In this document: positions 6,045 to 19,847 of the stretch, piece after piece
Numbering within the stretch: the stretch's first letter is position 1
Layout of the letters: each line of letters starts with the position of its first letter
DNA from: Candidatus Bathyarchaeota archaeon
GTDB taxonomy: Archaea > Thermoproteota > Bathyarchaeia > Bathyarchaeales > Bathycorpusculaceae
DNA: 64,000 nt
Assembly (NCBI GenBank): GCA_963782525.1
Contig: CAWAKC010000007.1
Coordinates: 348,165-412,164, forward strand
Direction of reading: 5' to 3'
Translations under genes and position numbers: made by a program
Notes under the pieces: generated by a model
Database searches by the model: none
Seen by the model: the letters and a program-made list of their open reading frames with translations, nothing else
Told to the model about the DNA's origin: nothing

Positions 6045-6335
6045 ATGCCAGATCAAGACTTGCCCCCATCAATCTTCCACATGCTTGAGAGAAATGTGGG
6101 CAAAAAAATCAGAGTCATTTTAGACCCCGCTTACGGTTTCGAAGGAACCTTAACAGCGGTTACTCATGAACCGTCAGGAATCTGGCTATCCGACGCAGAA
6201 GCAATCGTTTTAAGATCAACTATCGCTCAGCCGATTCCGCAGGTTGCTAGCAGAGAAGAAAGAAGCGAACTATTTTTGCACCTTAACTCAGTTCAAAGAA
6301 TAGAAGTCTTGCACCCAACAGCGCCAAGACGATAA
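6045..6335 (+). CDS. divergent Sm/LSm-like protein
   Basis: Sm1-like MLERNVGKKIRVIL...FEGTL...IWLSDAE and Sm2-like LFLHLNSVQRIE. Confidence 0.65.
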   Translation: MPDQDLPPSIFHMLERNVGKKIRVILDPAYGFEGTLTAVTHEPSGIWLSDAEAIVLRSTIAQPIPQVASREERSELFLHLNSVQRIEVLHPTAPRR

Positions 6336-6340
6336 AAAGT

Positions 6341-6517
6341 TTAAGCTGGGAAGAAAACTTTAGCTAAAACTGAAATAACTATTAGTGTAACTGCAAAGAC
6401 CACGAGCAGTTCAGGTCGGATTTTTACGCCTTCAGTCTCTTCCTCAAAGAACCTAAGCAACCCTGCACTTGCAGCAGGCATTGGACCTGTATCTTTCTTT
6501 TTCCTTCTTCCACTCAT
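6341..6517 (-). CDS. secG: preprotein translocase subunit Sec61beta/SecG
   Basis: Not in the ORF track (58 aa). Manual translation MSGRRKKKDTGPMPAASAGLLRFFEEETEGVKIRPELLVVFAVTLIVISVLAKVFFPA, with the SAGLLRFF motif and a C-terminal TM helix. Confidence 0.93.
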   Translation of the reverse strand: MSGRRKKKDTGPMPAASAGLLRFFEEETEGVKIRPELLVVFAVTLIVISVLAKVFFPA

Positions 6518-6610
6518 CAAACATTCCTACCGAAGCTAATGTGATACATGCCTAATATTTGCTTGCACTAATTAATCTTACGCCAACCCAGGATGCTCGA
6601 AATCCAAAAA

Positions 6611-6676
6611 GGTGGCATGCAACCCCGTTCTTCTGCTTTACGTAAGAGAGGAGTCATCGGGGGTTGCGAAAGCACC
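6611..6676 (+). ncRNA. candidate structured RNA (long irregular hairpin), family unknown
   Basis: Nested pairings GGTG/CACC, GCAACCCC/GGGGTTGC and TTCTTCT/AGAGGAG (G-U pairs favour the + strand) in the secG-mazG spacer. Confidence 0.35.
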
Positions 6677-6777
6677 TGCTTTTCTGTATACAAAAGCATC
6701 AACCAAACACACAAAATTGCTAATTTGAGTTTAATCTTTATTACCGCCCAAAATTAAATCCTCTGAAGTGAGCTCTA

Positions 6778-7065
6778 ATGGAAATTCATGAGTTTCAGAA
6801 AATGATGAAGCATCTTTACTTCGAAAGAGATTCCGCACGCGGAGTACAAGGCACTTTCAATTGGCTAGTAGATGAAGTTGCTGAATTAGGCGAAGAGTTG
6901 AAGGGAACCGACAAAGAAGCCACCGAAAAAGAGTTCGCCGATGTCATCGCTTGGCTCGCATCCCTAGCTAACATTATGGGAATCAACCTTGAGAAGGCAG
7001 CACTTAACAAGTATAACCACAAGTGCCCAAAATGTCAAAGCTCACCGTGTCGATGCACTTTCTAA
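6778..7065 (+). CDS. MazG-like nucleotide pyrophosphohydrolase
   Basis: DEVAELGEE...KEFADVIAWLASLAN all-alpha motif; C-terminal CPKC..PCRC. Confidence 0.88.
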   Translation: MEIHEFQKMMKHLYFERDSARGVQGTFNWLVDEVAELGEELKGTDKEATEKEFADVIAWLASLANIMGINLEKAALNKYNHKCPKCQSSPCRCTF

Positions 7066-7310
7066 TCGAGACGTTTCTGTCCTAAACCAGTCGTCAACCA
7101 AACATACCGCACACTGCCCTTTCGCTCAACAGTTCCTTCATCCTTCAACAGCTTTAGGTGGTACATAACAACACCATAAGTCAAGGCGGATCCTTTTGCA
7201 AGGTTAGAAGCACTAAAACCTTGTTTCTCAAGCGAACACAAAATTTTTGTTCGAGCCACAAGACCGCAATGTACGTTTCTTATGTTTTTTAAGTAAGCGT
7301 TCGGATGCAT
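7062..7310 (-). CDS. small winged-HTH protein (ArsR-like)
   Basis: RTKIL...SASNLAKGSALTYGVVMYHLKLLKDEGTVERKG wHTH pattern; follows polC on the same strand. Confidence 0.75.
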   Translation of the reverse strand: MHPNAYLKNIRNVHCGLVARTKILCSLEKQGFSASNLAKGSALTYGVVMYHLKLLKDEGTVERKGSVRYVWLTTGLGQKRLD

Positions 7311-7373: not shown

Positions 7374-10300
7374 CTAAAAATCAAAAAGCTTAGCTTGCTT
7401 TGGCTTTTTGTTGTCAAACATGGTGGCTATCTCTTCCTTGATTAAATCCATGCGCTGCGTATAGTATTTTGGCAAGCCATACTTGTCGACCAATTCTTGT
7501 GCGGCAAAAAGGTACTTCTCTATGCCGCCGCGGTAGACGGTGAGGGTTAGTTTTCCGCCGCAATAGGAACATTTGCCTTTAAGGGGTAATCGCCGGAATT
7601 TTTTGTTGCAAGACTTGCACCTGAAACCTTGCGTTGAGAAGGCACGCATGTTACCTGCGATATCACGCATGAAGTGGGTATTCAAAACCTTCAATGCCAC
7701 TCGCCTAGCATCGACGGCATCGATTTTTTCGCCCAGCTCCAATTGCATGTGCAACTTATCTATCATGGATTTGAATTCTTTGTAGGAACTGTTGGCGTTG
7801 CCGAGATTAATGTTTGTGCAGGGGGTGGTGTATTGGAAGCCTTCAAACTGCGCTTCCGTGCCCAGTCGGTGGCTGATGACATCCATCATGGCGCTTGCGG
7901 GTCTAGCGTCAAACTTCTCCAAGGTTTTCCTGTAGAACTCGATTGGGTAAGTTGCGCTAACGTCGAAGTCGTGTGCTTGGCGCTGAACCTCTTTTGTGTT
8001 TACAAAGGGGATGAGTAGGATAGGAGCATCCATTATTCCGCCGATCTGCGCAGGAAGAAAGACCCGAGAGAAGTTAAGAAGCGTGTCCAAAGCAAGCATG
8101 ATAGCATCTTCGTCGCCGTCGCAGTCTCGACGTTTAGCCGAATGCCAAACGGGATGAGCATAAATCACGTTGCGGTCAGTGAAACCAACCACTCTGCCTA
8201 GGATGCAGGCACACGTGTGAGGCGCCAACCCAAAGAGCAGGTGCCCAACCATATCCTCAGCTTTCTTAACGTTATAGTAAGCGGGTTGCTTGTAGACGCG
8301 AACTAAAAGGTCGTCGATGAAAGCGGCGATTTGAACAAAGTACTCGCCTGCACGCCAGGGAATCACAACATCTTGGATTTTAAGTTCGCAGACTTGATTA
8401 GAATCCGTTAGGGGCAAGCCATGGGTGTCTGAGAGATAGTCCATTTGACGCATCTTTTCGACTGAGACGCCAACTTCAGCAGGAGTGATGTGTGTTAATG
8501 GAGCGTTTGTGGCGTCGAAGCGGATGGTGCCATCCTTGTAAACTGATAGCCCGTGTTTTGCCCGCAAGATACCTTTCTCAATGTTCTCAGGTGTTTTATC
8601 AAGGTTTGTTAAACCCTTAACACCGCGAAGCATCTTTGGCGCAGGATATCCGAGGTTTGAACTGGCAATGGCGATTAATTCTTTAAAGTTCACGGGTTGA
8701 CGCTGATACATAACCCCATCGGTCTTGCATGTTGAGCATCCTGTGTCCTTTACTGTTTTACCACACCTTGGACAAATCTTCTCTGAGATGGTTTCGCAGT
8801 TGCATGAAGGACATTTTATTTTTAAGGTGTAGCTTTTGCAGTTTGGGCACTTACGCTTAGCCAGCTCGACAAAGACCGGCCCTTGTCGTGAAGCTTCCAT
8901 AAGGTCACGGTGTGTTCCTCCCTTTAATCCGACAGGGAAGAGGAGATGGACGAGAGGTTTCATTTCGCGGTGCTTAGCTTTTTCTGGTCTACCCATGCGC
9001 CCGCCTACATATGTTGGGGCTTTATCTTTGATTTGCACACTTGACAACAAGCTCAGCATTTCCAACGGGGAATTTGCTTGAACAACCTGTGTTTTACCGT
9101 AGCCAAGAGAGAAACCAAAAGAAGCAGCGTCTTCGCCAACCAGCACTATTTTGCCGTCAAAGATTTTATGCTGTACAAAGATTTTTCGAAGAGACTCTAT
9201 TACGGCCTCACTGACGTCACCCACAATTTTGCTCGCAAAGCTTTCGTTCAATGTTACTTCACAATTTGTTAACCACCGCCTCAGCAACTCGATTTCAGTT
9301 AGATTTGATATGCTGCCCCAAAACAAGAGACAATTAGGGGCAAGAGGGATGTCAAAGCAAAAACTTAATGCAGCAGCTTCTTTAACGGTTGGCTTGCATG
9401 CAAATGGGTCCGCAACAAAAGCCTCAAGCTTCACTATAGAAAGATTTGTCGCTTGAGCAGCCTTCTGAAAATCAGAACCGAATTTTTCCATAATAGCCCT
9501 TTGAAGGTCTTTTGCCCACCATTCCTCAACGTATCCCGAGGGTGGAAGCGCTTTGTTACAATATAGAAAATCGCCGAAGTCTATGAGCATGTCACCTAAG
9601 AAGAGGATTTTTTGAACCTTACCCTTAATATCAGGATAGTTTTCGAGCGAAACCCGCACAACGGAATTGTCTTTGAGCAAAACTACAGGTTGCTCAATGC
9701 TGTCCACGGGCATAGTGACGCCGCCTTTACCGGGCAACTCCAGACGCATCTGTGTGCCTGCAGCGAGAAAATTTTCAACTACAGCCATTGTAGCAGGATG
9801 AATACCCACTGCTGAGAGCCCCGTATTACGGGACCTTCCGTATCTGAGGCGAAAACCACCGCGAGTGGAAGGAAACGCAAAGATAGGGCGACCGGCAATG
9901 ACATCGTCCATGAAACCGCCTGATTTCTTCTCAGATTTCTTCTTGAAATTCTTGAGCCATTCCCAACCCTGAAAACCTAGCTTATCAATTATCACATAAA
10001 CTTTCTGAGCGCGCCCAACGATGCCGTCGTTTACGACACGAAGGGCTCCGCCTCTGACCCGATTGGTTTCGACTCTCTCCAGGTTACGATATGACGAGAC
10101 CTCTACGGGATCGGATTCGGTTCCTGTGCATTCGACTGGGATGAGGTTAAGCGCTTTTTTTAGTTCCTCATCGGGAATGTGGTATTGGAAACGTCCCACT
10201 GAGCGTTCGTAGAGTCTTAGTTCTTCGACGAAGCGGGAGACTTCTTCCTCAGTTGGCTTGTACTTGTCAAGGTCCAGTTCCCGACGTACGTAATCGCCCA

Positions 10301-10796
10301 CAACTAACGTTAACGCTTGATCGGTGCCGCCAGCTGAACGAATGGGCCCAGCAAAGTACACAGCGAGATAACGTGACTTGTCGGCGTTTGTTTTTATTTT
10401 AACTTGGGCTATACCCTGAATCGGTGCTGCAGTTAGGCCTTCAGTAAAGATTGCAAGGGCAGTTCGAATCGCTTGTTCCGCCAATTGTTCTGGTCTCTGT
10501 TCCGTCTTAGCGAATTTTCCTTGGGCAATTTGTTGGGCTACTTTAAACGCTACTTCTTCTCTCGGCATCTTTGTGTTTAATTCACGGATGCTAACAGCTA
10601 CATCTTTGGGGCCAACTAACCCTTCCACCAAGTCCGCGATGTCCTGTGCAACGATGCACTCGGTTTTTAGGGCTGGATCTAAGCCTTTGGATCTGGCGCT
10701 GTCACTTATGGCGTACAGTCGTTTAAGCTCGTTATCCATTGTTTGGACATAGTTTTGATAGCCCTTGCTAATATTCAATCGACAGCTCACCCGCAA
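7374..10796 (-). CDS. polC: DNA polymerase D large subunit DP2
   Basis: AGPIRSAGGT, GGFRLRYGRSRNTG, catalytic KRRDCDGDED and zinc-finger clusters; 1140 aa with no intein. Confidence 0.98.
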   Translation of the reverse strand: MRVSCRLNISKGYQNYVQTMDNELKRLYAISDSARSKGLDPALKTECIVAQDIADLVEGLVGPKDVAVSIRELNTKMPREEVAFKVAQQIAQGKFAKTEQRPEQLAEQAIRTALAIFTEGLTAAPIQGIAQVKIKTNADKSRYLAVYFAGPIRSAGGTDQALTLVVGDYVRRELDLDKYKPTEEEVSRFVEELRLYERSVGRFQYHIPDEELKKALNLIPVECTGTESDPVEVSSYRNLERVETNRVRGGALRVVNDGIVGRAQKVYVIIDKLGFQGWEWLKNFKKKSEKKSGGFMDDVIAGRPIFAFPSTRGGFRLRYGRSRNTGLSAVGIHPATMAVVENFLAAGTQMRLELPGKGGVTMPVDSIEQPVVLLKDNSVVRVSLENYPDIKGKVQKILFLGDMLIDFGDFLYCNKALPPSGYVEEWWAKDLQRAIMEKFGSDFQKAAQATNLSIVKLEAFVADPFACKPTVKEAAALSFCFDIPLAPNCLLFWGSISNLTEIELLRRWLTNCEVTLNESFASKIVGDVSEAVIESLRKIFVQHKIFDGKIVLVGEDAASFGFSLGYGKTQVVQANSPLEMLSLLSSVQIKDKAPTYVGGRMGRPEKAKHREMKPLVHLLFPVGLKGGTHRDLMEASRQGPVFVELAKRKCPNCKSYTLKIKCPSCNCETISEKICPRCGKTVKDTGCSTCKTDGVMYQRQPVNFKELIAIASSNLGYPAPKMLRGVKGLTNLDKTPENIEKGILRAKHGLSVYKDGTIRFDATNAPLTHITPAEVGVSVEKMRQMDYLSDTHGLPLTDSNQVCELKIQDVVIPWRAGEYFVQIAAFIDDLLVRVYKQPAYYNVKKAEDMVGHLLFGLAPHTCACILGRVVGFTDRNVIYAHPVWHSAKRRDCDGDEDAIMLALDTLLNFSRVFLPAQIGGIMDAPILLIPFVNTKEVQRQAHDFDVSATYPIEFYRKTLEKFDARPASAMMDVISHRLGTEAQFEGFQYTTPCTNINLGNANSSYKEFKSMIDKLHMQLELGEKIDAVDARRVALKVLNTHFMRDIAGNMRAFSTQGFRCKSCNKKFRRLPLKGKCSYCGGKLTLTVYRGGIEKYLFAAQELVDKYGLPKYYTQRMDLIKEEIATMFDNKKPKQAKLFDF

Positions 10797-10858
10797 GATA
10801 TGCTGAGATAGGTTATTTTGGCTTTCTAAAGAATACCGAAAAATCTAACAATAAAAAA

Positions 10859-11617
10859 TTAGGATTTAATGTTTTGTATTGCTTTTATTATTTCTGAAAT
10901 CCGTTTTGCTGCATCACTTGATTCAGTCACGTTTCCAGTAACGATTACGTCTGCACCTGCAGAAGCTGCGGCTAAAGCCTGCTCCTTTAATCGAATTCCT
11001 CCGCCGACGATAAGCGGAATGTCGATTAAGTGCTTGACGGCACGAATCATTTCTGGTGGCACAGGGTGTGCTGCTCCGGAGCCGCCTTCAAGATAGATGA
11101 AGCGCATGCCGAGGTATTGCCCGGCCAAAGCGTGGGCAGCTGCGAGTTCAGGCTTGTTGTATGGTACGGTGATTGCTTTTCCAACAATGCCAGCTGTTCC
11201 TCCATCGCCTACGATTATGTAACCCATGGAAATGGGTTCCAACCCATATTTTTTGACGAGTGGAGCTCCCAAGATTTGAGCGCCAATAAGGAAGTATGGA
11301 TCCACTGAATTGAGCAAGGACATGAACCAAATTGCATCGGCATGACAGCTTATTCCCGTGACGTTGTTTGGAAAAAGAATCGTGGGAATGTCTACTTTGG
11401 ATTTGATTGCTTTGACTACGTCGTTTAGGTGGTTTTCAGAGACAAAAGTTGAACCGCCAATCATTATCGCGGTTGTTCCGCTCTTCTTAGAGCTTTCAGC
11501 AATATTTGAAGCTCCTTCTACCGTGACTTTTTCTGGGTCTATTAGAGTTATGTGAATTGAACCGCCATTTTTTATTTTTTCGAGCAAGTACCGTTCAATA
11601 GGCCCTAGCATGGTCAT
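10859..11617 (-). CDS. geranylgeranylglyceryl phosphate synthase (GGGPS)
   Basis: HITLIDPEK, MIGGST, IYLEGGSGA, LIVGGGIR and VTGN motifs. Confidence 0.95.
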   Translation of the reverse strand: MTMLGPIERYLLEKIKNGGSIHITLIDPEKVTVEGASNIAESSKKSGTTAIMIGGSTFVSENHLNDVVKAIKSKVDIPTILFPNNVTGISCHADAIWFMSLLNSVDPYFLIGAQILGAPLVKKYGLEPISMGYIIVGDGGTAGIVGKAITVPYNKPELAAAHALAGQYLGMRFIYLEGGSGAAHPVPPEMIRAVKHLIDIPLIVGGGIRLKEQALAAASAGADVIVTGNVTESSDAAKRISEIIKAIQNIKS

Positions 11618-11624
11618 CCTTCAA

Positions 11625-11894
11625 TTACTCTTTTTTAACGCTCGTTATAGGCGTCCTTTTTTGGGTGCCGTAAACTCGGTCAGTTAACATGCAGTAGACG
11701 TCAACTTCGCCCTGTGCTAATTTAACGGGGAACTCTTCTTTGAGACCACAACTACTGCATTGTGCAACCGCGTGTCCACCCTCGTCACGTGTAATTTCTA
11801 CTTTAACTGTTTCTTTTCCGCATTTAGGGCAAGAATAGAATTTCGGTAACCGTTTCTTTGGAATATGAACAACTTTTTTCCTTCTTCGCCCCAT
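11625..11894 (-). CDS. elf1: transcription elongation factor Elf1
   Basis: MGRRRKK N-terminus, CPKC/CSSC zinc ribbon, VDVYC. Confidence 0.9.
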   Translation of the reverse strand: MGRRRKKVVHIPKKRLPKFYSCPKCGKETVKVEITRDEGGHAVAQCSSCGLKEEFPVKLAQGEVDVYCMLTDRVYGTQKRTPITSVKKE

Positions 11895-11974
11895 ACAATA
11901 ACCTTCTAAATCGTCTGGTAATGTTCATTAATATTTATGCTTGTCCTTAAATACTTGCCTACTAACCATCAATA

Positions 11975-12835
11975 GTGAGGCTGCATCGGCACTTGAAGTT
12001 AACACCGTCCGTGTTAGAGATGGATTTTTCAGAGACCCAAAAAAGAATCTGCCGTTTCATTGAAGAATACGTTGAAAATGCCGGAGCTAGAGGAATTGTA
12101 CTCGGGCTCTCGGGAGGAATCGACAGCGGAACTATAGCGGCGCTATCAAGTCTTGCCATTGGCGGCGAAAATGTCTTGGCGCTGATGTTGCCAGAGAAAG
12201 AGAATTTTAACCAAAAAGACATCGACGACGCGAGGGCTATTGCTAAAAAGTTTCATGTGGAAACGCAGGTCTGCGACATGTCAAAGGCACTAAACGGGAT
12301 TTACCATGCCATTCCAGTGTTTGACCAGTCCAACAGACTTTGCAAGGGAAACATCAAAGCTAGATATAGGATGATCTTCCTCTATTATTATGCCAATAAC
12401 CAAAACCGAATCGTCTGCGGTAGCTCCGATAAGTCCGAAACGATGATGGGGTACTTCACCAAATGGGGAGACGCCGCTGCAGATATAGCACCAATCATGG
12501 ACCTGTACAAGACTCAAGTCCGCAAACTCGCGTTGCATTTAGGAATCCCAAAGGAACTCGCCTTAAAACCATCCACACCAGCGCTCTGGCCTAACCAGCT
12601 GGCGGAATCTGAGCTCGGAATCAAGTACGAAACATTGGATCTTATCCTCTACGGGCTCGAACGATTCGTTTCTCCAGAAGAAATCGCAAAGGAACTCGCC
12701 GTTGAAAAGGTTCTTGTGGATAAAGTAAAGAGCAAATGGCTAGCTAATGAGCACAAGAGAAGAATGCCCTTGGCCCCAAAGATTAGTTACCGAACCGTAG
12801 GAAACGATTTTAGGCTTCCAAGACACACATACTAA
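11975..12835 (+). CDS. nadE: NH3-dependent NAD+ synthetase
   Basis: GLSGGIDS, GNIKAR, GYFTKWGD and LYKTQV motifs. Confidence 0.96.
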   Translation: MRLHRHLKLTPSVLEMDFSETQKRICRFIEEYVENAGARGIVLGLSGGIDSGTIAALSSLAIGGENVLALMLPEKENFNQKDIDDARAIAKKFHVETQVCDMSKALNGIYHAIPVFDQSNRLCKGNIKARYRMIFLYYYANNQNRIVCGSSDKSETMMGYFTKWGDAAADIAPIMDLYKTQVRKLALHLGIPKELALKPSTPALWPNQLAESELGIKYETLDLILYGLERFVSPEEIAKELAVEKVLVDKVKSKWLANEHKRRMPLAPKISYRTVGNDFRLPRHTY

Positions 12836-12849
12836 AAAGTGGAACCCAA

Positions 12850-13683
12850 ATGAAAGACAAGATTAGACTTGCACTTGCTCAAATCAGCAGTAAACGTGAA
12901 AACAAAAGCGAGAATCTGAGGAAGATAGAAGAGCTAACCATAAAAGCCAAAGAGCAAGGCGCAGACCTAATTATCTTTCCAGAGATGTCTTTAACAGGTT
13001 ACGTTATTTTAGATCAGGTTTACGAGCTTGCCGAGACGATACCTGGACCGTCAACCGATAAAGTTGAGACTTTGGCGAAGAAAACAGGAATGCACATCGT
13101 TTTTGGGATGCCGGAGTTGAGCGAAAAAACCCAAGCAACAATCTTTAATACCGCTGTCCTTGTTGGTCCCAAAGGCCTAATCGGTAAATACCGCAAGATG
13201 TACCTGCCAACTCACAGCGTCTTTGAAGAGAAAAGATATTTCCGCCCAGGGTATGAGCCAGCGGCATTCGAAACAGGTATAGGCAACATCGGATTATCCA
13301 TATGCTATGACGTTTTCTTTCCTGAAGTGTTTAGGCTATCACGCCTCAAGGGTGCGCAACTGATAATTTGCATTTCCGCGTCCCCAGCCGTGCGGAGAGG
13401 CTACTTTGAAATTTTAACGTGTGCTCGAGCACTTGAAAATACGGCGTTTATTGCATACGTTAACCTTGCTGGTGTTGAGGATGGATTGCAGTTTTGGGGT
13501 GGAAGCCGACTTGTTTGCCCAACGGGCGAGGTTGTTGCTAAGGCAAAGTACGATGAAGAAGATTTTGTCGTCTGCGACGTTAATTTTGGCGATTTGAGGG
13601 CTGCTGAAACGTTCATTCCGACCTTGAGAGATTTGCGGCCTGAACTTTTCGATAAATTGAAGGAGTTTTCAGAGCAAATCTGA
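12850..13683 (+). CDS. carbon-nitrogen hydrolase (nitrilase/amidase family)
   Basis: FPEM, YRK and ICYD triad (Glu-Lys-Cys); 14 bp after nadE. Confidence 0.92.
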   Translation: MKDKIRLALAQISSKRENKSENLRKIEELTIKAKEQGADLIIFPEMSLTGYVILDQVYELAETIPGPSTDKVETLAKKTGMHIVFGMPELSEKTQATIFNTAVLVGPKGLIGKYRKMYLPTHSVFEEKRYFRPGYEPAAFETGIGNIGLSICYDVFFPEVFRLSRLKGAQLIICISASPAVRRGYFEILTCARALENTAFIAYVNLAGVEDGLQFWGGSRLVCPTGEVVAKAKYDEEDFVVCDVNFGDLRAAETFIPTLRDLRPELFDKLKEFSEQI

Positions 13684-13825
13684 GATGTCACAGTTACATA
13701 AATTCCTTGGAGTGCAGCATCACAGGGGTATCACAAGGCTGTGATGTGAGGTAATTTGTGGTAAAATCACGTATTTCGGGTGATGTCACGGTGTTTTTTG
13801 TATGATGCCACGAATAAGTTGTGGC
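13681..13825. repeat. array A1 of TGTGAYGTCACA-like palindromic and half sites
   Basis: TGAGATGTCACA 13681, GCATCACAG 13717, GTATCACAA 13728, TGTGATGTG 13740, AATCACG 13765, GGTGATGTCACG 13779, TATGATGCCACG 13801. Confidence 0.8.
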
Positions 13826-14159
13826 CTGAAAACTATGTTTTAGTGTAAGATTGACCTAGAAAAAGTGTGGATATATCGTCGGAAATGCTAAAAATAAGGA
13901 GTTTAGGTTTGAGGGCGTTTGCAAAAGAGCATTTTTCGTGTAAAGTTCAGGCGCATTGGAGTAAAAAATTAACGAGAATTTAGGCTTTATTATGTCAACT
14001 GCACTTATTCTCGCACCAATTACTAAACAAGTCAAAATTGCGATCTAGATTAATAAATGGACGTTAATTCGAGCTTTTAATATTTCTGTAATGAGGGGTT
14101 AGGGCGGGTGCAAAGGTTAAAAACAAGGGTTAGTATACAAAACCGTATCCATTCAGACT

Positions 14160-14657
14160 ATGGAGGAACGCGGAGATTTGAAGTTAAAAGACGGCGTAAC
14201 AGCATGGTTAAGCGGGGCATTAAACGACCCCATTGTGCAAGTACTGGCTAAAAACAGCCAATTAACTAAAATACAGCTTGAAACATTGCTTATTGATGTT
14301 TTAGCTGAAAATATTTCCGATAAACAGCTAAACTACGATGAAAAATCTGCTTTACGGCTAACGAAGTCCAAAATAAGCCGCGGTTCGTTTAACAGGACGT
14401 TAAAACAGTCCAAAGAAAACGTCATAAAATCGATCTACACGGTACTACTTTTGGGTTATCTGGGTGTGTTTGAGAGCTCAACTCTTGACCCTTATCTCGA
14501 AATAGCCAATAAACTGCATGATTATGTAGAGGCTCACCAAGAAATGCCGGGCAAGGAAGAGGAACTAAAAGACCATCTAAAAGTGATAGAAATCATCCGA
14601 AATGAGCTCGAAACGAGCCTAAAACGGCTTTCTAGCCCATCACAAGACCAATTGTGA
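14160..14657 (+). CDS. uncharacterised origin-proximal HTH protein
   Basis: LTKIQLETL...LNYDEKSAL...ISRGSFNRTLKQSKENV resembles an HTH-10/sigma-r4-like recognition helix; helical C-terminus. Confidence 0.7.
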   Translation: MEERGDLKLKDGVTAWLSGALNDPIVQVLAKNSQLTKIQLETLLIDVLAENISDKQLNYDEKSALRLTKSKISRGSFNRTLKQSKENVIKSIYTVLLLGYLGVFESSTLDPYLEIANKLHDYVEAHQEMPGKEEELKDHLKVIEIIRNELETSLKRLSSPSQDQL

Positions 14658-14937
14658 CGTCACAAATCACAGATTTTTCAGTCATTTTTTTGCATTTTAG
14701 ATGAAGTAAATCATTTATCTGAATAGGCTTTAGTTAAGCATTAATTAACAAAATAAGCCTAATAATCGATTTTAAATGTATGGATACAGCTTCAAAATGA
14801 TGCACTGTGATGTGTGATGTCATACTTTACTAGGCATGATGTCACCGATAACCTTATTACTCCATGGAAATACTGTGATGTGTGATGCAACATTTGAAAA
14901 CACGGCGAATCACGGTTGAGTCACAAATAAATCACGA
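14638..14937. repeat. array A2 of TGTGAYGTCACA sites with a perfect palindrome, a 16-bp direct repeat and phased half sites
   Basis: TTGTGACGTCACAA 14652-14665; ACTGTGATGTGTGATG at 14804 and 14872; CATGATGTCACC 14835; CAC cores at 14901, 14911, 14922 and 14933. Confidence 0.85.
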
Positions 14938-14948
14938 GGGAAAACATC

Positions 14949-15731
14949 ATGATTGACCTCACACCAGTAATCGTAGGCATTTTAGTAACTATGACAGCAT
15001 TAGCTGGATACGAATACTATAAGCAAGTCCGCAAGGCATACAAAGAATACGAGAAAGCCAAAGATTTCATCGAAGATATCGTGCTCAGTTTTGATCGTGA
15101 GCTTAAACGTGAATCGGATAAGTTTGACACGATGGTTTCTAAAGTTGAAGGAAGCTACAACACAGCAAACGTGAGTTATAGAAAAGCAGATAACGTCGAA
15201 AGTAAAATAGAACCATTAGAGCAACAACTCGTTGCACTCAGCCAATCATACCAAGCGATGTCACAAACAATCTCACAGAATATAGGTGAAAACACTCAAA
15301 ATAGCACCAGCATCCTTACTGGGTTAACGGGGTTTGAAACAAAGATAAAAGATATTGAAGTCACACAGGAAACCTTGAGAAACAGAATATTAGCCTTTGA
15401 AGACCAAATTCAGAAGCTTTCTGTTTCTCCTCCTGTAGAAGCTAAAAACGAAATTGTTTTGCCTTCCATAGTAATCAAACGGGACAAAGCCATGTCCGCT
15501 CTTACTGACACCGAAATCGCAGTTCTTGAAATGTTGTCTAAAGAAGGGGCCAAGACGGCGCCTGAAATCAAAGAGAGGGTAAAGCTTAGTCGGGAGCATA
15601 CGGCAAGGTTGATGAAGAAACTCTATGAAGAAGGGTACCTTGAGCGGGAAGCAGGTAAAATTCCCTTTAGGTATAGCATTAAGAAGGAAATGGAAGCATT
15701 ACTGCAGAAATCTGAGAGCACAGCGGTTTAA
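14949..15731 (+). CDS. membrane-anchored coiled-coil protein with C-terminal winged-HTH
   Basis: N-terminal TM (LTPVIVGILVTMTALAGY), about 130 aa heptad-rich region, then LTDTEIAVLEML...TAPEIKERVKLSREHTARLMKKLYEEGYLER wHTH. Confidence 0.85.
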   Translation: MIDLTPVIVGILVTMTALAGYEYYKQVRKAYKEYEKAKDFIEDIVLSFDRELKRESDKFDTMVSKVEGSYNTANVSYRKADNVESKIEPLEQQLVALSQSYQAMSQTISQNIGENTQNSTSILTGLTGFETKIKDIEVTQETLRNRILAFEDQIQKLSVSPPVEAKNEIVLPSIVIKRDKAMSALTDTEIAVLEMLSKEGAKTAPEIKERVKLSREHTARLMKKLYEEGYLEREAGKIPFRYSIKKEMEALLQKSESTAV

Positions 15732-15749
15732 GGCAAAATTGTAACTTGA

Positions 15750-15782
15750 GTTCACAGGTTGTTCACAGTTGTGTTTTGTGAA
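15750..15782. repeat. TTCACA motif cluster B1 between convergent genes
   Basis: GTTCACAG at 15750 and 15761 (11 bp apart) plus inverted TTGTGAA at 15776. Confidence 0.7.
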
Positions 15783-15786
15783 GGGA

Positions 15787-16218
15787 TTACTTTATGCGTT
15801 GTTTGATTGTCGCTTGTGGTAGGCTTGGGGCTGTCTTATACTTTAAGCTGTTTGGTCCACCCGTCCTAAGCAGCATCCCTTTGGCTGCCATCCTTGAAAG
15901 ATAAGTTGAAACTGTACTGAGGCCCACAGGTTCTTTGAGTTCCTGTTCGTAGATAGACTGGATTTCTTTGGATGAGAACCAAATCAAGGGGAAATTTTTC
16001 TGGATAACCAACTGAACCTTCTCAAAACGTGACAAAATCTTATTCGGTAAAGCATTCCCTGCAATTGCAGTTGGACCTTCGCCTGATGCTCCACCTAGCA
16101 GCTCCACAAGATCCAAAAGGCGCAGAGCTTTATCTCGGGTCACTTGGCCCTCAAAAGCAATGGTATATCGATTACCATCGCTATCGAACAGCTCAACGCG
16201 CATTTTACGAGCCGGCAT
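15787..16218 (-). CDS. uncharacterised origin-proximal protein: small N-terminal beta/alpha domain plus winged-HTH
   Basis: N-terminal KMRVELFDSDGNRYTIAFEGQVTRDKALRLLDLVELL, linker, then FSSKEIQSIYEQELKEPVGLSTVSTYLSRMAAKGMLLRTG wHTH. Confidence 0.8.
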   Translation of the reverse strand: MPARKMRVELFDSDGNRYTIAFEGQVTRDKALRLLDLVELLGGASGEGPTAIAGNALPNKILSRFEKVQLVIQKNFPLIWFSSKEIQSIYEQELKEPVGLSTVSTYLSRMAAKGMLLRTGGPNSLKYKTAPSLPQATIKQRIK

Positions 16219-16234
16219 CTGGTTACACCTTAAG

Positions 16235-16539
16235 GTTGTTCACAACTTTATGCTTCACAACATATAGCTGTTATGGTGAAGCCGATGAATAGGAAAAAGA
16301 ATATTTGAGCTTATACATCTGTTTTGGATGTAATTTGAAGTGATTTGGCTATAACCAGCTTCACAAATAAACGAAACTGCTAAAAATATTCAGTTAAGGC
16401 TTAGTTCTGCTTTTCCAGTAGAAGCGTAGGGGTGCCTTGTTCACTTGTAAGAGACAAGAAAAGGGTAATTTACCAGCAAATAACCCAAATAAAGCGACAA
16501 ATAAATTGTTATTTCACATGTATTCACAGTTTTGTGAAC
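16235..16539. repeat. TTCACA motif cluster B2 extending into oriC
   Basis: GTTCACAA 16238, CTTCACAA 16253, CTTCACAA 16359, GTTCACTT 16439, TTTCACAT 16512, ATTCACAG 16522, inverted TTGTGAAC 16532. Confidence 0.7.
16413..16434 (+). promoter_or_regulatory. ORB1 (Orc1/Cdc6 binding site)
   Basis: TTCCAGTAGAAGCGTAGGGGTG matches the archaeal ORB pattern TCCAG-GAAA-G-string. Confidence 0.9.
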
Positions 16540-16669
16540 ATAAAAACAAAGAAAAATTAGCAAAAAAAATATAGGCAAACTTAGCGATATCTACAAACAA
16601 AAAATTACAGAAACAAAGTACTCACCGCCACCATCAAGGAAATTTACCATAGAAAATTAGTTGTAGCCA

Positions 16670-16691
16670 CACCCCTATGTTTCCGCTCGAA
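16670..16691 (-). promoter_or_regulatory. ORB2 (inverted)
   Basis: Reverse complement reads TTCGAGCGGAAACATAGGGGTG. Confidence 0.88.
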
Positions 16692-16854
16692 GTATTTGGG
16701 AGAAAAAGAAGTCAGAAAAGCCTGAACAAACTTTTGCAGAAGATTTGTCTAAAAACTTTGATGACAAATATTAATATATAAAAAAATAACTTACCTATTA
16801 CAGTATATTACTGTATATATAATAAATAGTAGTTTTCTTTTAACCAACATTATT

Positions 16855-16876
16855 CTCCAGTAGAAACTTTGGGGTG
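16855..16876 (+). promoter_or_regulatory. ORB3
   Basis: CTCCAGTAGAAACTTTGGGGTG. Confidence 0.92.
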
Positions 16877-16975
16877 TGTGTGCTCTCGCTTTGTTTGGTT
16901 GTTATCGGCTATTTTCTTTGTTTTTTAGGATTGTTGTGCTCTAAAACTATTTTTTTGTAGTGTATACTTTATCTG

Positions 16976-16996
16976 TTCCACACGAAATAACGGTGT
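16976..16996 (+). promoter_or_regulatory. mini-ORB in the cdc6 promoter region (possible autoregulation)
   Basis: TTCCACACGAAATAACGGTGT, ending about 30 bp before the cdc6 start. Confidence 0.6.
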
Positions 16997-17027
16997 TGCC
17001 TCTGAAGAATGATGAGAGGGATGCCTG

Positions 17028-18269
17028 ATGGGAAATTCAAGCGTATTAGATGATGTATTCGAAAACTTCGTGAACGGAGTTAAATTGTTCAAAGACCGAG
17101 AGGTCTTAAGGCACGATTATCTTCCGGAGAAACTTCCACACCGAGAAGACCAGATTCGCCTGTTAGGTGCAACCGTTGCCCCAGTTTTGAGGAATTCAAG
17201 ATGCTCAAACATTTTCATCTATGGAAAAACGGGGACTGGAAAAACGGCCGTAACTAAATACGTTTTAAGTCACTTGGAGTCTAAAGCAAAGGAATATGGT
17301 GCACAAGTAAAATTCTGCTACATCAACTGCCGAATGACTGGGTCTGAATACCGCGTTTTCGCAAGCCTTAGCCAAAGCGTGGGGTTATCAATACCCTTTA
17401 CAGGTCTATCTGCAGGAGAAGTTTTTGACCGTTTTCGTCAAGGATTAGATCAATCCAGAATAATATTTATCATCATTTTAGATGAAGTTGACGCCCTGAT
17501 CAAGGAACACGGCGACTCATTCATGTACGAGTTAACCAGGATAAACGAAACTTTAACCAAAAGCAAAGTTGCACTAATCGGCATATCCAACGACCTGCGG
17601 CTAAAAGAATTCCTCGACCCAAGAGTCTTCAGTTCTCTGAGCGAAGAAGAATTGGTCTTCAGACCTTATGATGCAGGTGAACTTCGAAATATATTGCTTG
17701 AACGGTCGAAGCTCTCCTTCCAAGATGGCGTTCTCACTGATTCAGCATTGAGCATTTGCTCGGCTTTAGCTGCAGCCGAACATGGAGACGCGCGGCGAGC
17801 TTTGGATTTGTTGCGCGTTGCTGGGGAAGTTGCTGAGCGGTTGGGAGCGAAAACGATCACAGAAGAACACGTGCGCCAAGCTGAAAAACACATCGAGCAT
17901 AACCGCGTTGTAGATGCCCTCAACAACTTAACGTTGCATTCCAAGCTCGTATTACTAAGCGTTTATCACTTAAACAAATCAAGCGCAACTACCGGAGAAA
18001 TCTATGATATCTACAATGAATTGTGCGGTGAAATGGGCGCTGGGCTTCTAACTCAACGTCGTTTAGGTACTTTGGTTAATGAGCTTGATTCAATGGGGCT
18101 TGTGAATGCAAAAGTAGTAAGCATGGGCCGATACGGCAGAACCAAAAAAATCCGTTTGGAGATTTCTCGCAGCTTAATTCGCGACGTCTTCAGCAGCGAT
18201 AACCGTTTTAGTCACTTACTTGAGTACTCGCCCCAAGTTTCCAACAAAAAGCCAAACAACAGTACATAG
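17028..18269 (+). CDS. cdc6: Orc1/Cdc6 replication initiator
   Basis: LPHRE, GKTGTGKT Walker A, ILDEVD Walker B, HGDARRALDLLR, C-terminal wHTH with GRYGRTK. Confidence 0.98.
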   Translation: MGNSSVLDDVFENFVNGVKLFKDREVLRHDYLPEKLPHREDQIRLLGATVAPVLRNSRCSNIFIYGKTGTGKTAVTKYVLSHLESKAKEYGAQVKFCYINCRMTGSEYRVFASLSQSVGLSIPFTGLSAGEVFDRFRQGLDQSRIIFIIILDEVDALIKEHGDSFMYELTRINETLTKSKVALIGISNDLRLKEFLDPRVFSSLSEEELVFRPYDAGELRNILLERSKLSFQDGVLTDSALSICSALAAAEHGDARRALDLLRVAGEVAERLGAKTITEEHVRQAEKHIEHNRVVDALNNLTLHSKLVLLSVYHLNKSSATTGEIYDIYNELCGEMGAGLLTQRRLGTLVNELDSMGLVNAKVVSMGRYGRTKKIRLEISRSLIRDVFSSDNRFSHLLEYSPQVSNKKPNNST

Positions 18270-19847
18270 TTAATTGAACGAAAGGACTGTAGTCTGTAAG
18301 GTTTGTAGGTTCACAACCGGTACCATACCAGGTGTAGGAACCAACCCTAATTTTTCCATATAGTCTGTTTGGTCTTGCCAACCGCCAGAATTAACAACCA
18401 ATACGCCACGGTAGTTGCAGTAACCTATCACGTGTATGTGTCCTGCATGAAAAATGTCAGGAATTCTATCCACGACGAGGTAGTCTCGGTTTTCTGGGGA
18501 CAACATGGTTTTCCCACCGTACACAGGCGCTAAATGTCGACTCTGCATAAGAAGCCGCATCGCTTTCTCAGGATGCGCATGATCCATTCCAGGTATAACA
18601 GCGATTATGTCGTCTAAGCTTCGGCCATGGTACATTAAAACATCAACGCCATGCAGACTTAGAAGGCATGGGCTTCCGACAGAATGAATGTTGTTCATTC
18701 CCTTTATGCCCGTTAAATAACCTTCTGGTATGGCTGGTTGTGGTAAGGATTTGCGTGCTGCGTCATGGTTTCCTGGTGACAGAAAAATCTCGATGTAGCT
18801 GGGAATTTTTTCAAGGTACTTGGCGGCGTAATTGTATTGTTTGTGCACATCCCGTATGGTTAACTCGTTCTGTTGACCGGGGTAGATTCCTACTCCGTCC
18901 ACGATGTCTCCCGCAACGAGGAGGTATTTTACTCGACTTGCGATTTCCTTCATCTCTGGCGTTCCATACTTGCCCCTAAGCCACAGAATAAATCTCCTGA
19001 ATGATTCTTTGGTGAATTTTGTGCTGCCTATGTGGATGTCCGACGTGAGGACTGCGTAAACTGGTTCTTGGGCTCTTTGCTGCTGTTTTCTTCCGATGTC
19101 TGGAAAGATTATATCTTCAGCCATGAACAGGTTGGTCCGCGTTTTGATGACTGCTAAACAGATTACTTGGTCAGGTAACAGCATAAGTGCTTTTTTCTTG
19201 ACTTCTTCGGGGGCTTTTTGAGGCACAAGAACAGTTGCGCTTCCGTCCAAGTCCTCGACCGAGAGGATAGTGTGGTTTTTTGAATCCCGCTTCTCGGTTA
19301 ACATGCAGATTATTTTGAGTTTGGTTTTGGCCGGTGACTTGAGTGCCTCTGTTATAGGCGTTGCTGCTTTAACATCCATTCTTTGCCGAAGCAAGCGTTC
19401 GATGCGCTTGAAGCGGTCTTGGAAGTACGCGACATACTCGTCTAGGGTTCCGTTTGAGGTCAATTTGCCTGTGGCATCATCGAGGATTTTGATGTCTGCG
19501 GGTATGTCTTTGGCATATGGATAGAACTCGACTTCATCTAAACCTTCAGTTGTTATTGGACGATCAAATTTTATGGGTGGTTCAGGCATAGTTTGTGTCT
19601 TTGATATAGGCTCTTCTGTTATGGTAATTGTTGGCTGATGTATTAGTGCTTCCAAAAAAACCCGTTCAATAAACATTGGCTTATCTTGTAACAAATCTAT
19701 TTTTTCAAGCGCCAGATTCGTTATGGTGATTGGATCATTTGTTTCTGCGTTCTGTATTAGGAACTCAAAGGCTTCGCTGTTAAGTTGGTATCCCGCAGCC
19801 ATTATCGCTTGAATAGCTCGTTGCAGTTTTTCTTGTGCACTCATCAA
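18270..19847 (-). CDS. polB: DNA polymerase D small (proofreading) subunit DP1
   Basis: SDIHIGS, AGDIVDGVGIYPGQ, PGNHD, YHGRS and HAGHIH phosphoesterase motifs. Confidence 0.97.
   Translation of the reverse strand: MMSAQEKLQRAIQAIMAAGYQLNSEAFEFLIQNAETNDPITITNLALEKIDLLQDKPMFIERVFLEALIHQPTITITEEPISKTQTMPEPPIKFDRPITTEGLDEVEFYPYAKDIPADIKILDDATGKLTSNGTLDEYVAYFQDRFKRIERLLRQRMDVKAATPITEALKSPAKTKLKIICMLTEKRDSKNHTILSVEDLDGSATVLVPQKAPEEVKKKALMLLPDQVICLAVIKTRTNLFMAEDIIFPDIGRKQQQRAQEPVYAVLTSDIHIGSTKFTKESFRRFILWLRGKYGTPEMKEIASRVKYLLVAGDIVDGVGIYPGQQNELTIRDVHKQYNYAAKYLEKIPSYIEIFLSPGNHDAARKSLPQPAIPEGYLTGIKGMNNIHSVGSPCLLSLHGVDVLMYHGRSLDDIIAVIPGMDHAHPEKAMRLLMQSRHLAPVYGGKTMLSPENRDYLVVDRIPDIFHAGHIHVIGYCNYRGVLVVNSGGWQDQTDYMEKLGLVPTPGMVPVVNLQTLQTTVLSFN

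Follow-up and report, generated by a model that had tools for sequence, protein, structure and literature searches.

Three small proteins and three families of candidate binding sites beside a predicted replication origin in Bathyarchaeia

Genes, origin and conservation of the locus

The window, a 64,000-nucleotide stretch of a Candidatus Bathyarchaeota assembly (G000, 2.87 Mb; all coordinates are window positions), carries three small genes next to a predicted replication origin (oriC) and the initiator gene cdc6/orc1 (Table 1). They are termed A, B and C (the open reading frames, ORFs, at 14160, 14949 and 15787), and X denotes an additional small gene of relatives. Short boxes around the three genes cluster at this place only in the genome, are conserved with the genes, and co-occur with them across lineages. 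On balance, the locus appears to be an ancient, self-contained nucleoprotein and autoregulatory module flanking oriC, in which each of three proteins would have its private cis-elements.

The PolD large subunit gene is followed by genes for GGGP synthase (GGGPS), a small zinc-ribbon protein, NAD synthase and a CN-hydrolase (nitrilase), and then by A, B and C. Beyond C, an 809-bp spacer with three origin recognition boxes (ORBs) and an AT-rich stretch leads to cdc6 and the PolD small subunit. The CN-hydrolase and cdc6 are named from a domain scan, and the other neighbors from reading of their translations only.

The spacer has the layout of an ORB/Cdc6-type oriC: several ORBs, at least two of them inverted round an AT-rich stretch, and an adjacent cdc6/orc1. 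ORB2 (16668-16691, minus strand) is inverted relative to ORB1, and between it and ORB3 (16854-16878, plus strand) lies an AT-rich stretch at about 16770-16845, the presumed unwinding site. A whole-assembly scan places the strict ORB pattern at this locus only, and the ORBs are as conserved as coding sequence in an alignment of 63 relatives. The cumulative GC skew of the contig has no switch at the ORB site. The origin of Nitrosopumilus maritimus has reportedly been mapped.

An initial annotation, made from the DNA alone, called the three ORFs orphans, but they are single-copy genes that keep synteny with oriC-cdc6 in 55-56 of the 61 order genomes. A was found in 56, B in 55 and C in 55 of these genomes, mostly as single matches lying side by side. 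The arrangement A-B-C is kept in all 20 loci fetched from the order and cdc6 in 19 of them, the 20th ending at a contig edge. Compared by eye, the boxes of these loci hold their positions relative to TATA boxes, start codons and ORB1. Across the class, 120 of 151 genomes have A (87 of the 95 high-quality ones), and across the phylum 100 of 201 do. In a different class, a complete Nitrosopumilus genome, whose cdc6 product is 38% identical, has the series PolD small subunit, cdc6, ORB-bearing spacer, C, B, A, GGGPS and PolD large subunit. Among 80 Nitrosopumilaceae loci, 72 have the order cdc6-oriC-C-B-A, and in the remaining eight at least one of the four genes is not within the stretch fetched. 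Motifs and origin linkage, whose conservation the initial annotation had named as a test, are found in all 20 order loci and in those 72 loci of the other class.

RNA contigs from four metatranscriptome libraries, in which DNA carry-over is possible, extend over portions of A, B and C and over the beginning of cdc6. The window from 7374 to 19847 is collinear with the Nitrosopumilus locus (L116) from the PolD large to the PolD small subunit, an unusually stable origin island. An integrated mobile element was considered and rejected because A, B and C are single-copy and vertically conserved.

Table 1. Positions of genes, boxes and origin elements in the window
Feature	Position	Strand	Remarks
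PolD large subunit	7374-10796	-	reading of translation
CN-hydrolase (nitrilase)	12850-13683		domain scan
Distal ATCACR/TGTGAY array	13681-13812		starts on the nitrilase stop codon
Putative promoter region of A	14111-14150	+	TATA-like AAAGGTTAAAAAC, then palindrome GTATACAAAACCGTATCC
Gene A	14160-14657	+	165 aa, all-alpha (model), no family match
Sites at 3' end of A	14639-14671		ATCACA, perfect palindrome TGTGACGTCACA over stop codon, ATCACA
Array at putative B promoter	14806-14936		TGTGATGTGTGATGTCAT, ATGATGTCACC, TATA-like AACCTTATTA, TGTGATGTGTGATGCAAC, then leader sites
Gene B	14949-15731	+	260 aa; membrane anchor, helical stretch, C-terminal MarR/TrmB-type winged helix-turn-helix (wHTH)
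Three TTCACA boxes at convergent B/C 3' ends	15751-15782		lineage-specific
Gene C	15787-16218	-	143 aa; N-terminal beta-beta-alpha domain and wHTH
Putative promoter region of C	16225-16282	-	GTTCACA (16238), CTTCACA (16253), TTCACC (minus strand, 16275-16280)
Conserved box CCAGCTTCACAAA	16355-16368	+	50 bp ahead of ORB1
ORB1 (TTCCAGTAGAAGCGTAGGGGTG) and box TTCACT 5 nt on	16412-16445	+	ORB1 itself 16412-16434
Three boxes ATTTCACATGTATTCACAGTTTTGTGAAC between ORB1 and ORB2	16510-16540		forward, forward, reverse; conservation ~0.9
Core origin	16668-16878		inverted ORB2, AT-rich stretch, ORB3
cdc6/orc1 initiator gene	17028-18269	+	Cdc6_lid 1.4e-24, Cdc6_C 2.3e-24, AAA

Box families and the genes they accompany

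The motif clusters reported in the initial annotation are real and stronger than was claimed: no other clusters of this kind in the 2.87-Mb genome are as dense, and a genome-wide motif count finds such clusters nowhere else. Between 13600 and 17030 there are 12 ATCACR sites where the genome rate predicts 1.86, and nine TTCACA sites where it predicts 1.81. The densest 300-bp ATCACR window of the genome, with eight sites, is at 14639; the next-densest have four, one of them at 13719 in the same locus and two elsewhere. For TTCACA the densest window, with six sites, is at 16239, and the runner-up has four. The two ATCACR clusters together hold at least 17 half-sites of this type. TGTGATGTGTGATG has two copies genome-wide, both upstream of B (14806 and 14874), and GTGAYGTCAC has three matches at two places, both within the locus. 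The perfect palindrome TGTGAYRTCACA has a single copy, at the stop codon of A (14653), while its one-mismatch copies number 13 (two in the locus) versus 18 in a reversed-genome control. Other box clusters in the genome (C11:127266, C1:599368, C3:415563, C6:40753 and C2:38999) were set aside as coding or chance-like. Since no other arrays or palindromes were found in G000, the boxes appear to be private to the locus, with no regulon elsewhere, and because no other clustered or palindromic sites were found, the output of the module must be local or pass through protein contacts. An Rfam scan of 13500-17100 gave no match at E <= 1, and a scan for sigma-70 promoters and terminators, with models not apt for archaea, gave no excess over shuffles.

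B has the architecture initially annotated, a transmembrane segment followed by a coiled coil and a wHTH. Its N-terminal 19-mer is hydrophobic (mean Kyte-Doolittle value 1.96) and the next 21 residues hold six Lys or Arg. The middle part, about 135 residues, is mostly helical and coiled-coil-like, with weak matches to coiled-coil families. The wHTH at residues 185-244 scores above the Pfam cut-offs for MarR (30.8 bits, cut-off 24.6), TrmB (28.8, 25.6) and HTH_27 (26.2, 22.2), and the Nitrosopumilus homologue matches HTH_27 at 28.2. This layout of anchor, stalk and wHTH is kept in 17 of 17 aligned homologues, Nitrosopumilus included, as is, nearly invariant, the recognition-helix region REHTARLMKKLY. 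The helix and the ATCACR box are both nearly invariant across the two classes.

The distal ATCACR array has six strict half-sites (13687, 13719, 13730, 13740, 13766 and 13785) and degenerate ones, at a spacing of 10-11 bp. As first described, sites lie at gene 3' ends (the nitrilase stop at 13681 and the A stop at 14653), and one array is more than 330 bp from the next start codon (13681-13812 against 14160), ending about 350 bp ahead of A. All 79 close relatives have 3-8 sites (median 5) in the distal array, which forms conserved blocks in 80 aligned spacers. Neither it nor the site at the A stop has a recognizable promoter. In other families of the order the distal array lies ahead of X; G000 lacks X (best tblastn E 0.66), yet retains the array. 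The RNA-library contigs have no cover over 13834-14067 and are uninformative on a transcript from this array.

In all 79 close relatives the spacer between A and B holds 5-13 ATCACR sites, with a median of 8. In its putative promoter the TATA-like AACCTTATTA occupies 14850-14859, TGTGATGTGTGATGCAAC covers the likely start site, and the leader has the sites ATCACG, GTCACA and ATCACG in this order. Most of the 20 order loci have a half-site and palindrome about 25 bp upstream of the TATA-like box; TGTGATGTGTGATGCAAC or a variant follows about 15-30 bp downstream of it, and the leader has 2-4 ATCACR sites. By de novo 6-mer counts, ATCACA is 10.8-fold enriched in the A-B spacer of 77 Nitrosopumilaceae loci.

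X encodes about 103-119 amino acids without a Pfam family. It follows the distal array in L017-L019, L022 and L024, and in other orders it adjoins A upstream on the same strand (L124:7807-8115, L206 and L229). It looks like a fourth, facultative member of the module. The variable spacer between the nitrilase gene and A also has two moderately conserved non-coding blocks at 13917-13998, GTTTGCAAAAGAGCATTTTTCGTGTAAAGTT and TTTAGGC...TTATGTCAAC (80 sequences), with no Rfam match and no RNA-contig cover.

C was initially described as a small domain plus a wHTH, and its model (pLDDT 69) bears this out: two strands with a helix come first, then a disordered linker, then a wHTH. Fold matches are to generic wHTH repressors only (MecI, BlaI, RosR, Fur and AspA; Foldseek E 2e-3 to 1e-2). 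The score against the Penicillinase_R (BlaI/MecI) Pfam model, 16.9 bits, is under the cut-off of 22.6, and an Atlas search gave the protein's own cluster and weak leads only.

Two to three TTCACA boxes straddle the TATA-like box and start site of C. In 63 aligned spacers (median 65% identity), the boxes of this putative promoter, which flank the TATA-like ATATAG and the GGTG ribosome-binding site, reach a conservation of 0.8-0.9, and the TTCACA boxes are as conserved as the ORBs. The box about 50 bp ahead of ORB1 is a tandem pair in other families, and the annotated sites between ORB1 and ORB2 are present at 16440 and 16513-16538. Among the 18 order loci scored, 17 have 4-10 TT(C/A)ACA boxes within 200 bp of the C-proximal ORB, and 17 have 0-1 at the cdc6-proximal ORB. 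The claim that TTCACA clusters flank C on both sides holds for the window, but the 3' cluster is lineage-specific: of 62 close relatives, 11 have at least two sites there and 48 have none.

The Nitrosopumilaceae box is TTAACA/GTTAAC instead: 75 spacers contain 807 TTAACA and 67 TTCACA, and de novo 6-mer counts at oriC show GTTAAC enriched 13-fold and TGTTAA 8-fold. The recognition helix of C reads LST.ST in most Bathyarchaeia loci, paired with TTCACA boxes, and LS(I/V)IST in 80 of 80 Nitrosopumilaceae, paired with TTAACA. This covariation of helix and box is suggestive only. A complex prediction for Cdc6 and C (alignments A4 and A2) scored 0.00, which speaks neither for nor against binding.

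A could not be confirmed as a helix-turn-helix (HTH) protein, as it had been annotated, since it has no Pfam, NCBIfam or PDB match (nothing below E 0.4 in a PDB profile search). Its model is all-alpha (pLDDT 64), and fold searches (Foldseek, VIA-align) return generic helical hairpins or bundles only, over residues 105-165. A Pfam scan of 19 homologues gave nothing significant, one of them touching DUF134 at E 0.064. The Atlas gives A's own cluster and one lead (score 0.78) to a cluster with 14% Sigma70_r4 members. From such weak leads, the conserved stretch LTKTQLETLLID...ISRGAFNRTLxQAK looks similar to an HTH of the sigma-70 region-4 type. A homologue search yields 4040 proteins at E <= 0.001, and the 120 listed are all unnamed or 'hypothetical', without a Pfam domain.

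The palindrome of A, GTATAC-N6-GTATCC (14133-14150), is absent from the motifs of the initial annotation. It lies between a TATA-like box and the start codon, 10 nt ahead of the latter, in what is probably the promoter; box and palindrome are nearly invariant across the order. ATAC-N4-8-GTAT occurs ahead of the A start in 62 of 70 phylum loci, versus 0.02 per 370 bp in the rest of the same loci. G000 has only one copy of the strict form; other palindromes of this type lie at C3:391051 (coding) and C8:45939 (start of a 90-aa ORF). At the other end of the gene, nearly all 20 order loci have a palindrome or near-palindrome with ATCACA at or just past the A stop (by eye, uncounted). RNA-library contigs of runs X16, X17 and X18 end after this site, at 14672-14678, which may be a weak hint of the 3' end of the A transcript directly past the palindrome, DNA carry-over being possible. 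Within 14672-14695, a T-rich run, TTTTTCAGTCATTTTTTTGC, lies directly beyond these contig ends.

The pairing of boxes and proteins was inferred from natural gene loss across the phylum. A, B, C, X and cdc6 were called by profiles in 70 loci, and box density was taken as the maximum per 300 bp (permuted-motif control: 1-2 for ATCACR, 2 for TT(C/A)ACA). The ATCACR maximum has a median of 7 (range 1-13) in the 57 loci with B, mostly beside A or B, and of 2 (range 1-6), which is background, in the 13 loci without it. B was found nowhere else in five of five genomes that lack it beside A. The TT(C/A)ACA maximum has a median of 5 (2-10) in 48 loci with C versus 3 (2-5) in 22 without. Loci with X and A but no B (L124, L206 and L229) have no arrays, which speaks against A as the protein that binds them. 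In six of six loci where A, B and cdc6 are present without C (L122, L123, L208, L210, L232 and L233), the ORBs have 0-1 boxes, and where C and cdc6 are apart (L225-227, L239-241) an ORB-like element stays beside C. All seven loci fetched from one large family (L216-L222) have A-B and arrays without cdc6 or an ORB within about 7 kb. These distributions suggest that ATCACR arrays go with B, TT(C/A)ACA boxes with C and the palindrome with A. The two box families, initially taken for one system with a TCAC core, would then belong to different proteins and places.

Several points weigh against these pairings and the module built on them. The genomes sampled are related, so the counts are non-independent samples. 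One locus (L234) is a clear exception to arrays following B, with a six-site ATCACR array beside A and no B found by profile (genome 86% complete), while few ATCACR sites accompany B in others (such as L117, L212, L232, L233 and L244), where either the box has diverged or the pairing is wrong. TT(C/A)ACA is short and A+T-rich and its contrast is modest (5 vs 3); L118 and L223 have 3-4 such boxes near ORBs despite having no C. The covariation of C helix and box has its exceptions as well, L031 having LST with mostly TTAACA and L231 LSV with TTCACA. Co-occurrence also fits a regulation of the B promoter by A, which is countered by the X-A loci without arrays only, and A itself has no DNA-binding domain recognizable in Pfam or PDB searches. 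Finally, the site is a predicted origin, called from the ORBs, cdc6 and the AT-rich core only.

In the usual place of B, L234 (genome G134) has at 6077-7077 a gene for a 227-aa XRE-HTH protein, whose sequence reads as XRE-CBS, and the locus retains ATCACR sites and a CGTGATATCACG palindrome at the 3' end of A. L123, without C, has another small HTH protein between B and cdc6 (6416-6781; 122 aa; HTH_23 E 8e-4, below the cut-off).

A proposed module and competing readings

For the module we infer which protein binds which boxes, repression, looping, and effects on replication or DNA position. B would act as a dimeric wHTH protein held at the membrane by its N-terminal anchor and long helical stalk. 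It would bind ATCACR/TGTGAY half-sites cooperatively and coat two phased arrays on either side of gene A, so that the bound DNA would comprise the distal array, the A stop codon, and the B promoter, beginning ahead of its TATA box and running on into the leader. B may repress the A-B region in this way, perhaps by looping between the arrays, and as a by-product or function DNA 2-3 kb from oriC would be held at the membrane. The TT(C/A)ACA boxes straddle the promoter of C, which suggests that C binds them and represses its own gene. Such boxes are also found around the C-proximal ORB and throughout the interval from ORB1 to ORB2, so that C would sit beside Cdc6 on origin DNA and might modulate origin occupancy or firing. 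A would bind the palindrome between its own TATA box and start codon and repress itself.

The arrays were initially read as a centromere, with B tethering origin-proximal DNA to the membrane for segregation, either independently of ParA or with an ATPase acting in trans. A membrane-anchored array-binding protein near oriC is a fair reading, because B has the anchor, stalk and wHTH in every aligned homologue and the arrays co-occur with it; the segregation role has no direct support, and we consider it doubtful. In its favor are the two half-site clusters found only here, the sites without an evident promoter (the A stop codon and the distal array, which persists in lineages that lost X), and the linkage of A-B-C to oriC in two classes. 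There is also published precedent in the parS heptad arrays of pSM19035, which are centromere sites, and in the palindromes that SegB and AspA bind ahead of the genes encoding them. However, no ParA/CbiA-type gene lies within about 12 kb, as had been noticed initially, the nearest being a weak 25-bit match at 1248-1574. In all seven of the loci without a nearby origin, the arrays follow B rather than the origin. A profile search did not find B in several lineages of Bathyarchaeia where A, C and cdc6 are retained, and B is therefore no universal device for segregation in that group. Most ATCACR and TTCACA sites are in classical operator positions round TATA boxes and start sites, and the B-array system gives no evidence of spreading, a motor or localization. 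In a wider form, A-B-C would be a previously unrecognized origin-organizing system predating the split of Bathyarchaeia and Nitrososphaeria, with C gating Cdc6 at the C-proximal ORB and B as a ParA-independent membrane tether on a centromere-like array; this too is tentative and rather unlikely.

Autoregulation alone, in which three unrelated factors repress their own promoters and the nearness to oriC reflects slow rearrangement, would account for the boxes round the TATA boxes and start sites of A, B and C. The whole neighborhood (PolD large subunit, GGGPS, zinc-ribbon gene, cdc6 and PolD small subunit) is conserved between the classes, so synteny alone is weak evidence of coupling, and in one family A-B lies away from cdc6. 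Nevertheless, we think it improbable that this is the full explanation. A regulator of itself only has no output, and no other candidate targets were found in the genome. The TTCACA boxes reach 300 bp past the C promoter, flank ORB1 and fill the interval to ORB2 while being conserved like ORBs, and an ORB remains beside C where cdc6 has moved off. Nor do the distal ATCACR array and the A-stop site lie at promoters that could be recognized.

That the TTCACA boxes are accessory Cdc6 sites of the mini-ORB type, and not C sites, is very improbable. They do adjoin ORB1 (one lies 5 nt past its GGGGTG), and archaeal origins carry shorter ORB variants according to a review, but the boxes have no sequence in common with the ORB. 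In all six loci where C is absent beside A, B and cdc6, the ORBs lack them (0-1), and few are seen at the cdc6-proximal ORB. They also occur far from ORBs, at the C promoter and, in the 11 relatives noted above, the B-C 3' junction.

Known systems, significance and further observations

The proposed module of three proteins with private sites shares with partition systems the repeated sites near an origin, as a resemblance in layout only. A, B and C have no ParB or ribbon-helix-helix (RHH) domain in Pfam or NCBIfam, SegB itself having been left out of the comparison, and the 12 matches to PF01656 in G000 include none within about 12 kb of the locus.

Bacillus RacA/ram and Noc/NBS are membrane-associated chromosome anchors, and ArnR/ArnR1 are membrane-bound archaeal regulators. 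B would resemble RacA, Noc and ArnR in coupling a site-specific DNA-binding domain to the membrane or cell pole, with clustered sites. Unlike RacA and Noc, it shows no ParB or MerR domain (Pfam) and no homology to them. The ram and NBS sites number tens and are spread over large chromosome regions, whereas those assigned to B are confined to 1.3 kb. ArnR regulates other genes, whereas no target outside the locus is visible for B in G000. ParR/parC of plasmid R1 is a plasmid centromere-operator.

The parS of pSM19035 is described as consisting of WATCACW heptad arrays, which overlap promoters and to which the RHH protein omega binds. The likeness is in short repeats with an ATCAC core, direct and inverted, overlapping the system's own promoters. 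As described there, omega is an RHH protein, whereas B is a wHTH and C a beta-beta-alpha plus wHTH protein, and the repeats of our locus are mostly 10-11 bp apart rather than contiguous heptads, the exception being the TGTGATGTGTGATG pairs. No ParA partner is adjacent here either. The shared ATCAC core is a coincidence of letters, not homology.

SegB and AspA are described as binding palindromes upstream of their own cassettes, for which the authors cannot yet tell a centromere from an operator role. SegAB of Sulfolobus and AspA-ParB-ParA of pNOB8 are thus alike in having dimeric, site-specific binders at palindromes upstream of their own cassette, but they have a Walker ATPase in the operon, and the locus has none. 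AspA is among the generic wHTH fold matches of C, at rank 15 (Foldseek E 8e-3), no better than BlaI, MecI, RosR or Fur.

WhiP, at oriC3 of Sulfolobus, is a Cdt1-related initiator at an origin without ORBs, according to a review. It is similar, on that account, in being a winged-helix protein encoded beside an origin and presumed to bind it, with replicator and gene travelling together. Here, by contrast, ORBs and cdc6 are present and the C boxes interleave with the ORBs. C also differs from WhiP, compared by that description only, in its 143 aa, its unrelated N-terminal beta-beta-alpha domain and its single wHTH.

The 3.3 kb next to oriC offer directly testable candidates, three small proteins and three families of boxes, in a set conserved from soil and peat Bathyarchaeia to Nitrosopumilus, relatives of which are culturable. 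These genes and boxes are not described in the literature searched, which excluded supplements and the Nitrosopumilus origin-mapping paper. Binding of C to the boxes interleaved with the ORBs would make it an accessory factor of the origin with sequence specificity, acting alongside Cdc6, and no such factor is described in that literature. Binding of B to the arrays would make it a membrane-anchored DNA-binding protein whose only address on the chromosome lies near the origin. An origin-organizing system, were it real, would mean a control of replication or origin position unlike ParABS or SegAB, also in the globally abundant ammonia oxidizers. To our knowledge, little is understood of origin-firing control and chromosome positioning in archaea beyond Sulfolobales and haloarchaea. 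On the modest reading, the locus would offer natural operator-repressor pairs for phyla with almost no characterized regulators, and the boxes give an origin signature beyond ORBs for the annotation of metagenome-assembled genomes.

In 11 of the 20 order loci (L016-L022, L024-L026 and L034), an insert of 2.5-2.8 kb lies between the B and C homologues, downstream of C and on its strand (such as L026:8982-11514). In the three loci inspected it encodes two proteins, one of about 340 aa that matches no Pfam family and a P-loop ATPase of about 515 aa whose central domain is HerA (DUF87, E 5e-8); G000 has neither gene (tblastn, E <= 1e-3). An ATPase of the HerA/FtsK superfamily downstream of C, beside oriC, may bear on the question of segregation.

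The cdc6 promoter region (16905-17010) has long blocks, TTTTTTAGGATTGTTGTG, TATTTTTTTGTAG and TATACTTTATCTGTTCCACACGAAATAACGGTG, with a conservation of 0.8-0.9 in 63 relatives. These have no ATCACR or TTCACA box, and a GTATAC in the region resembles half of the palindrome of A.

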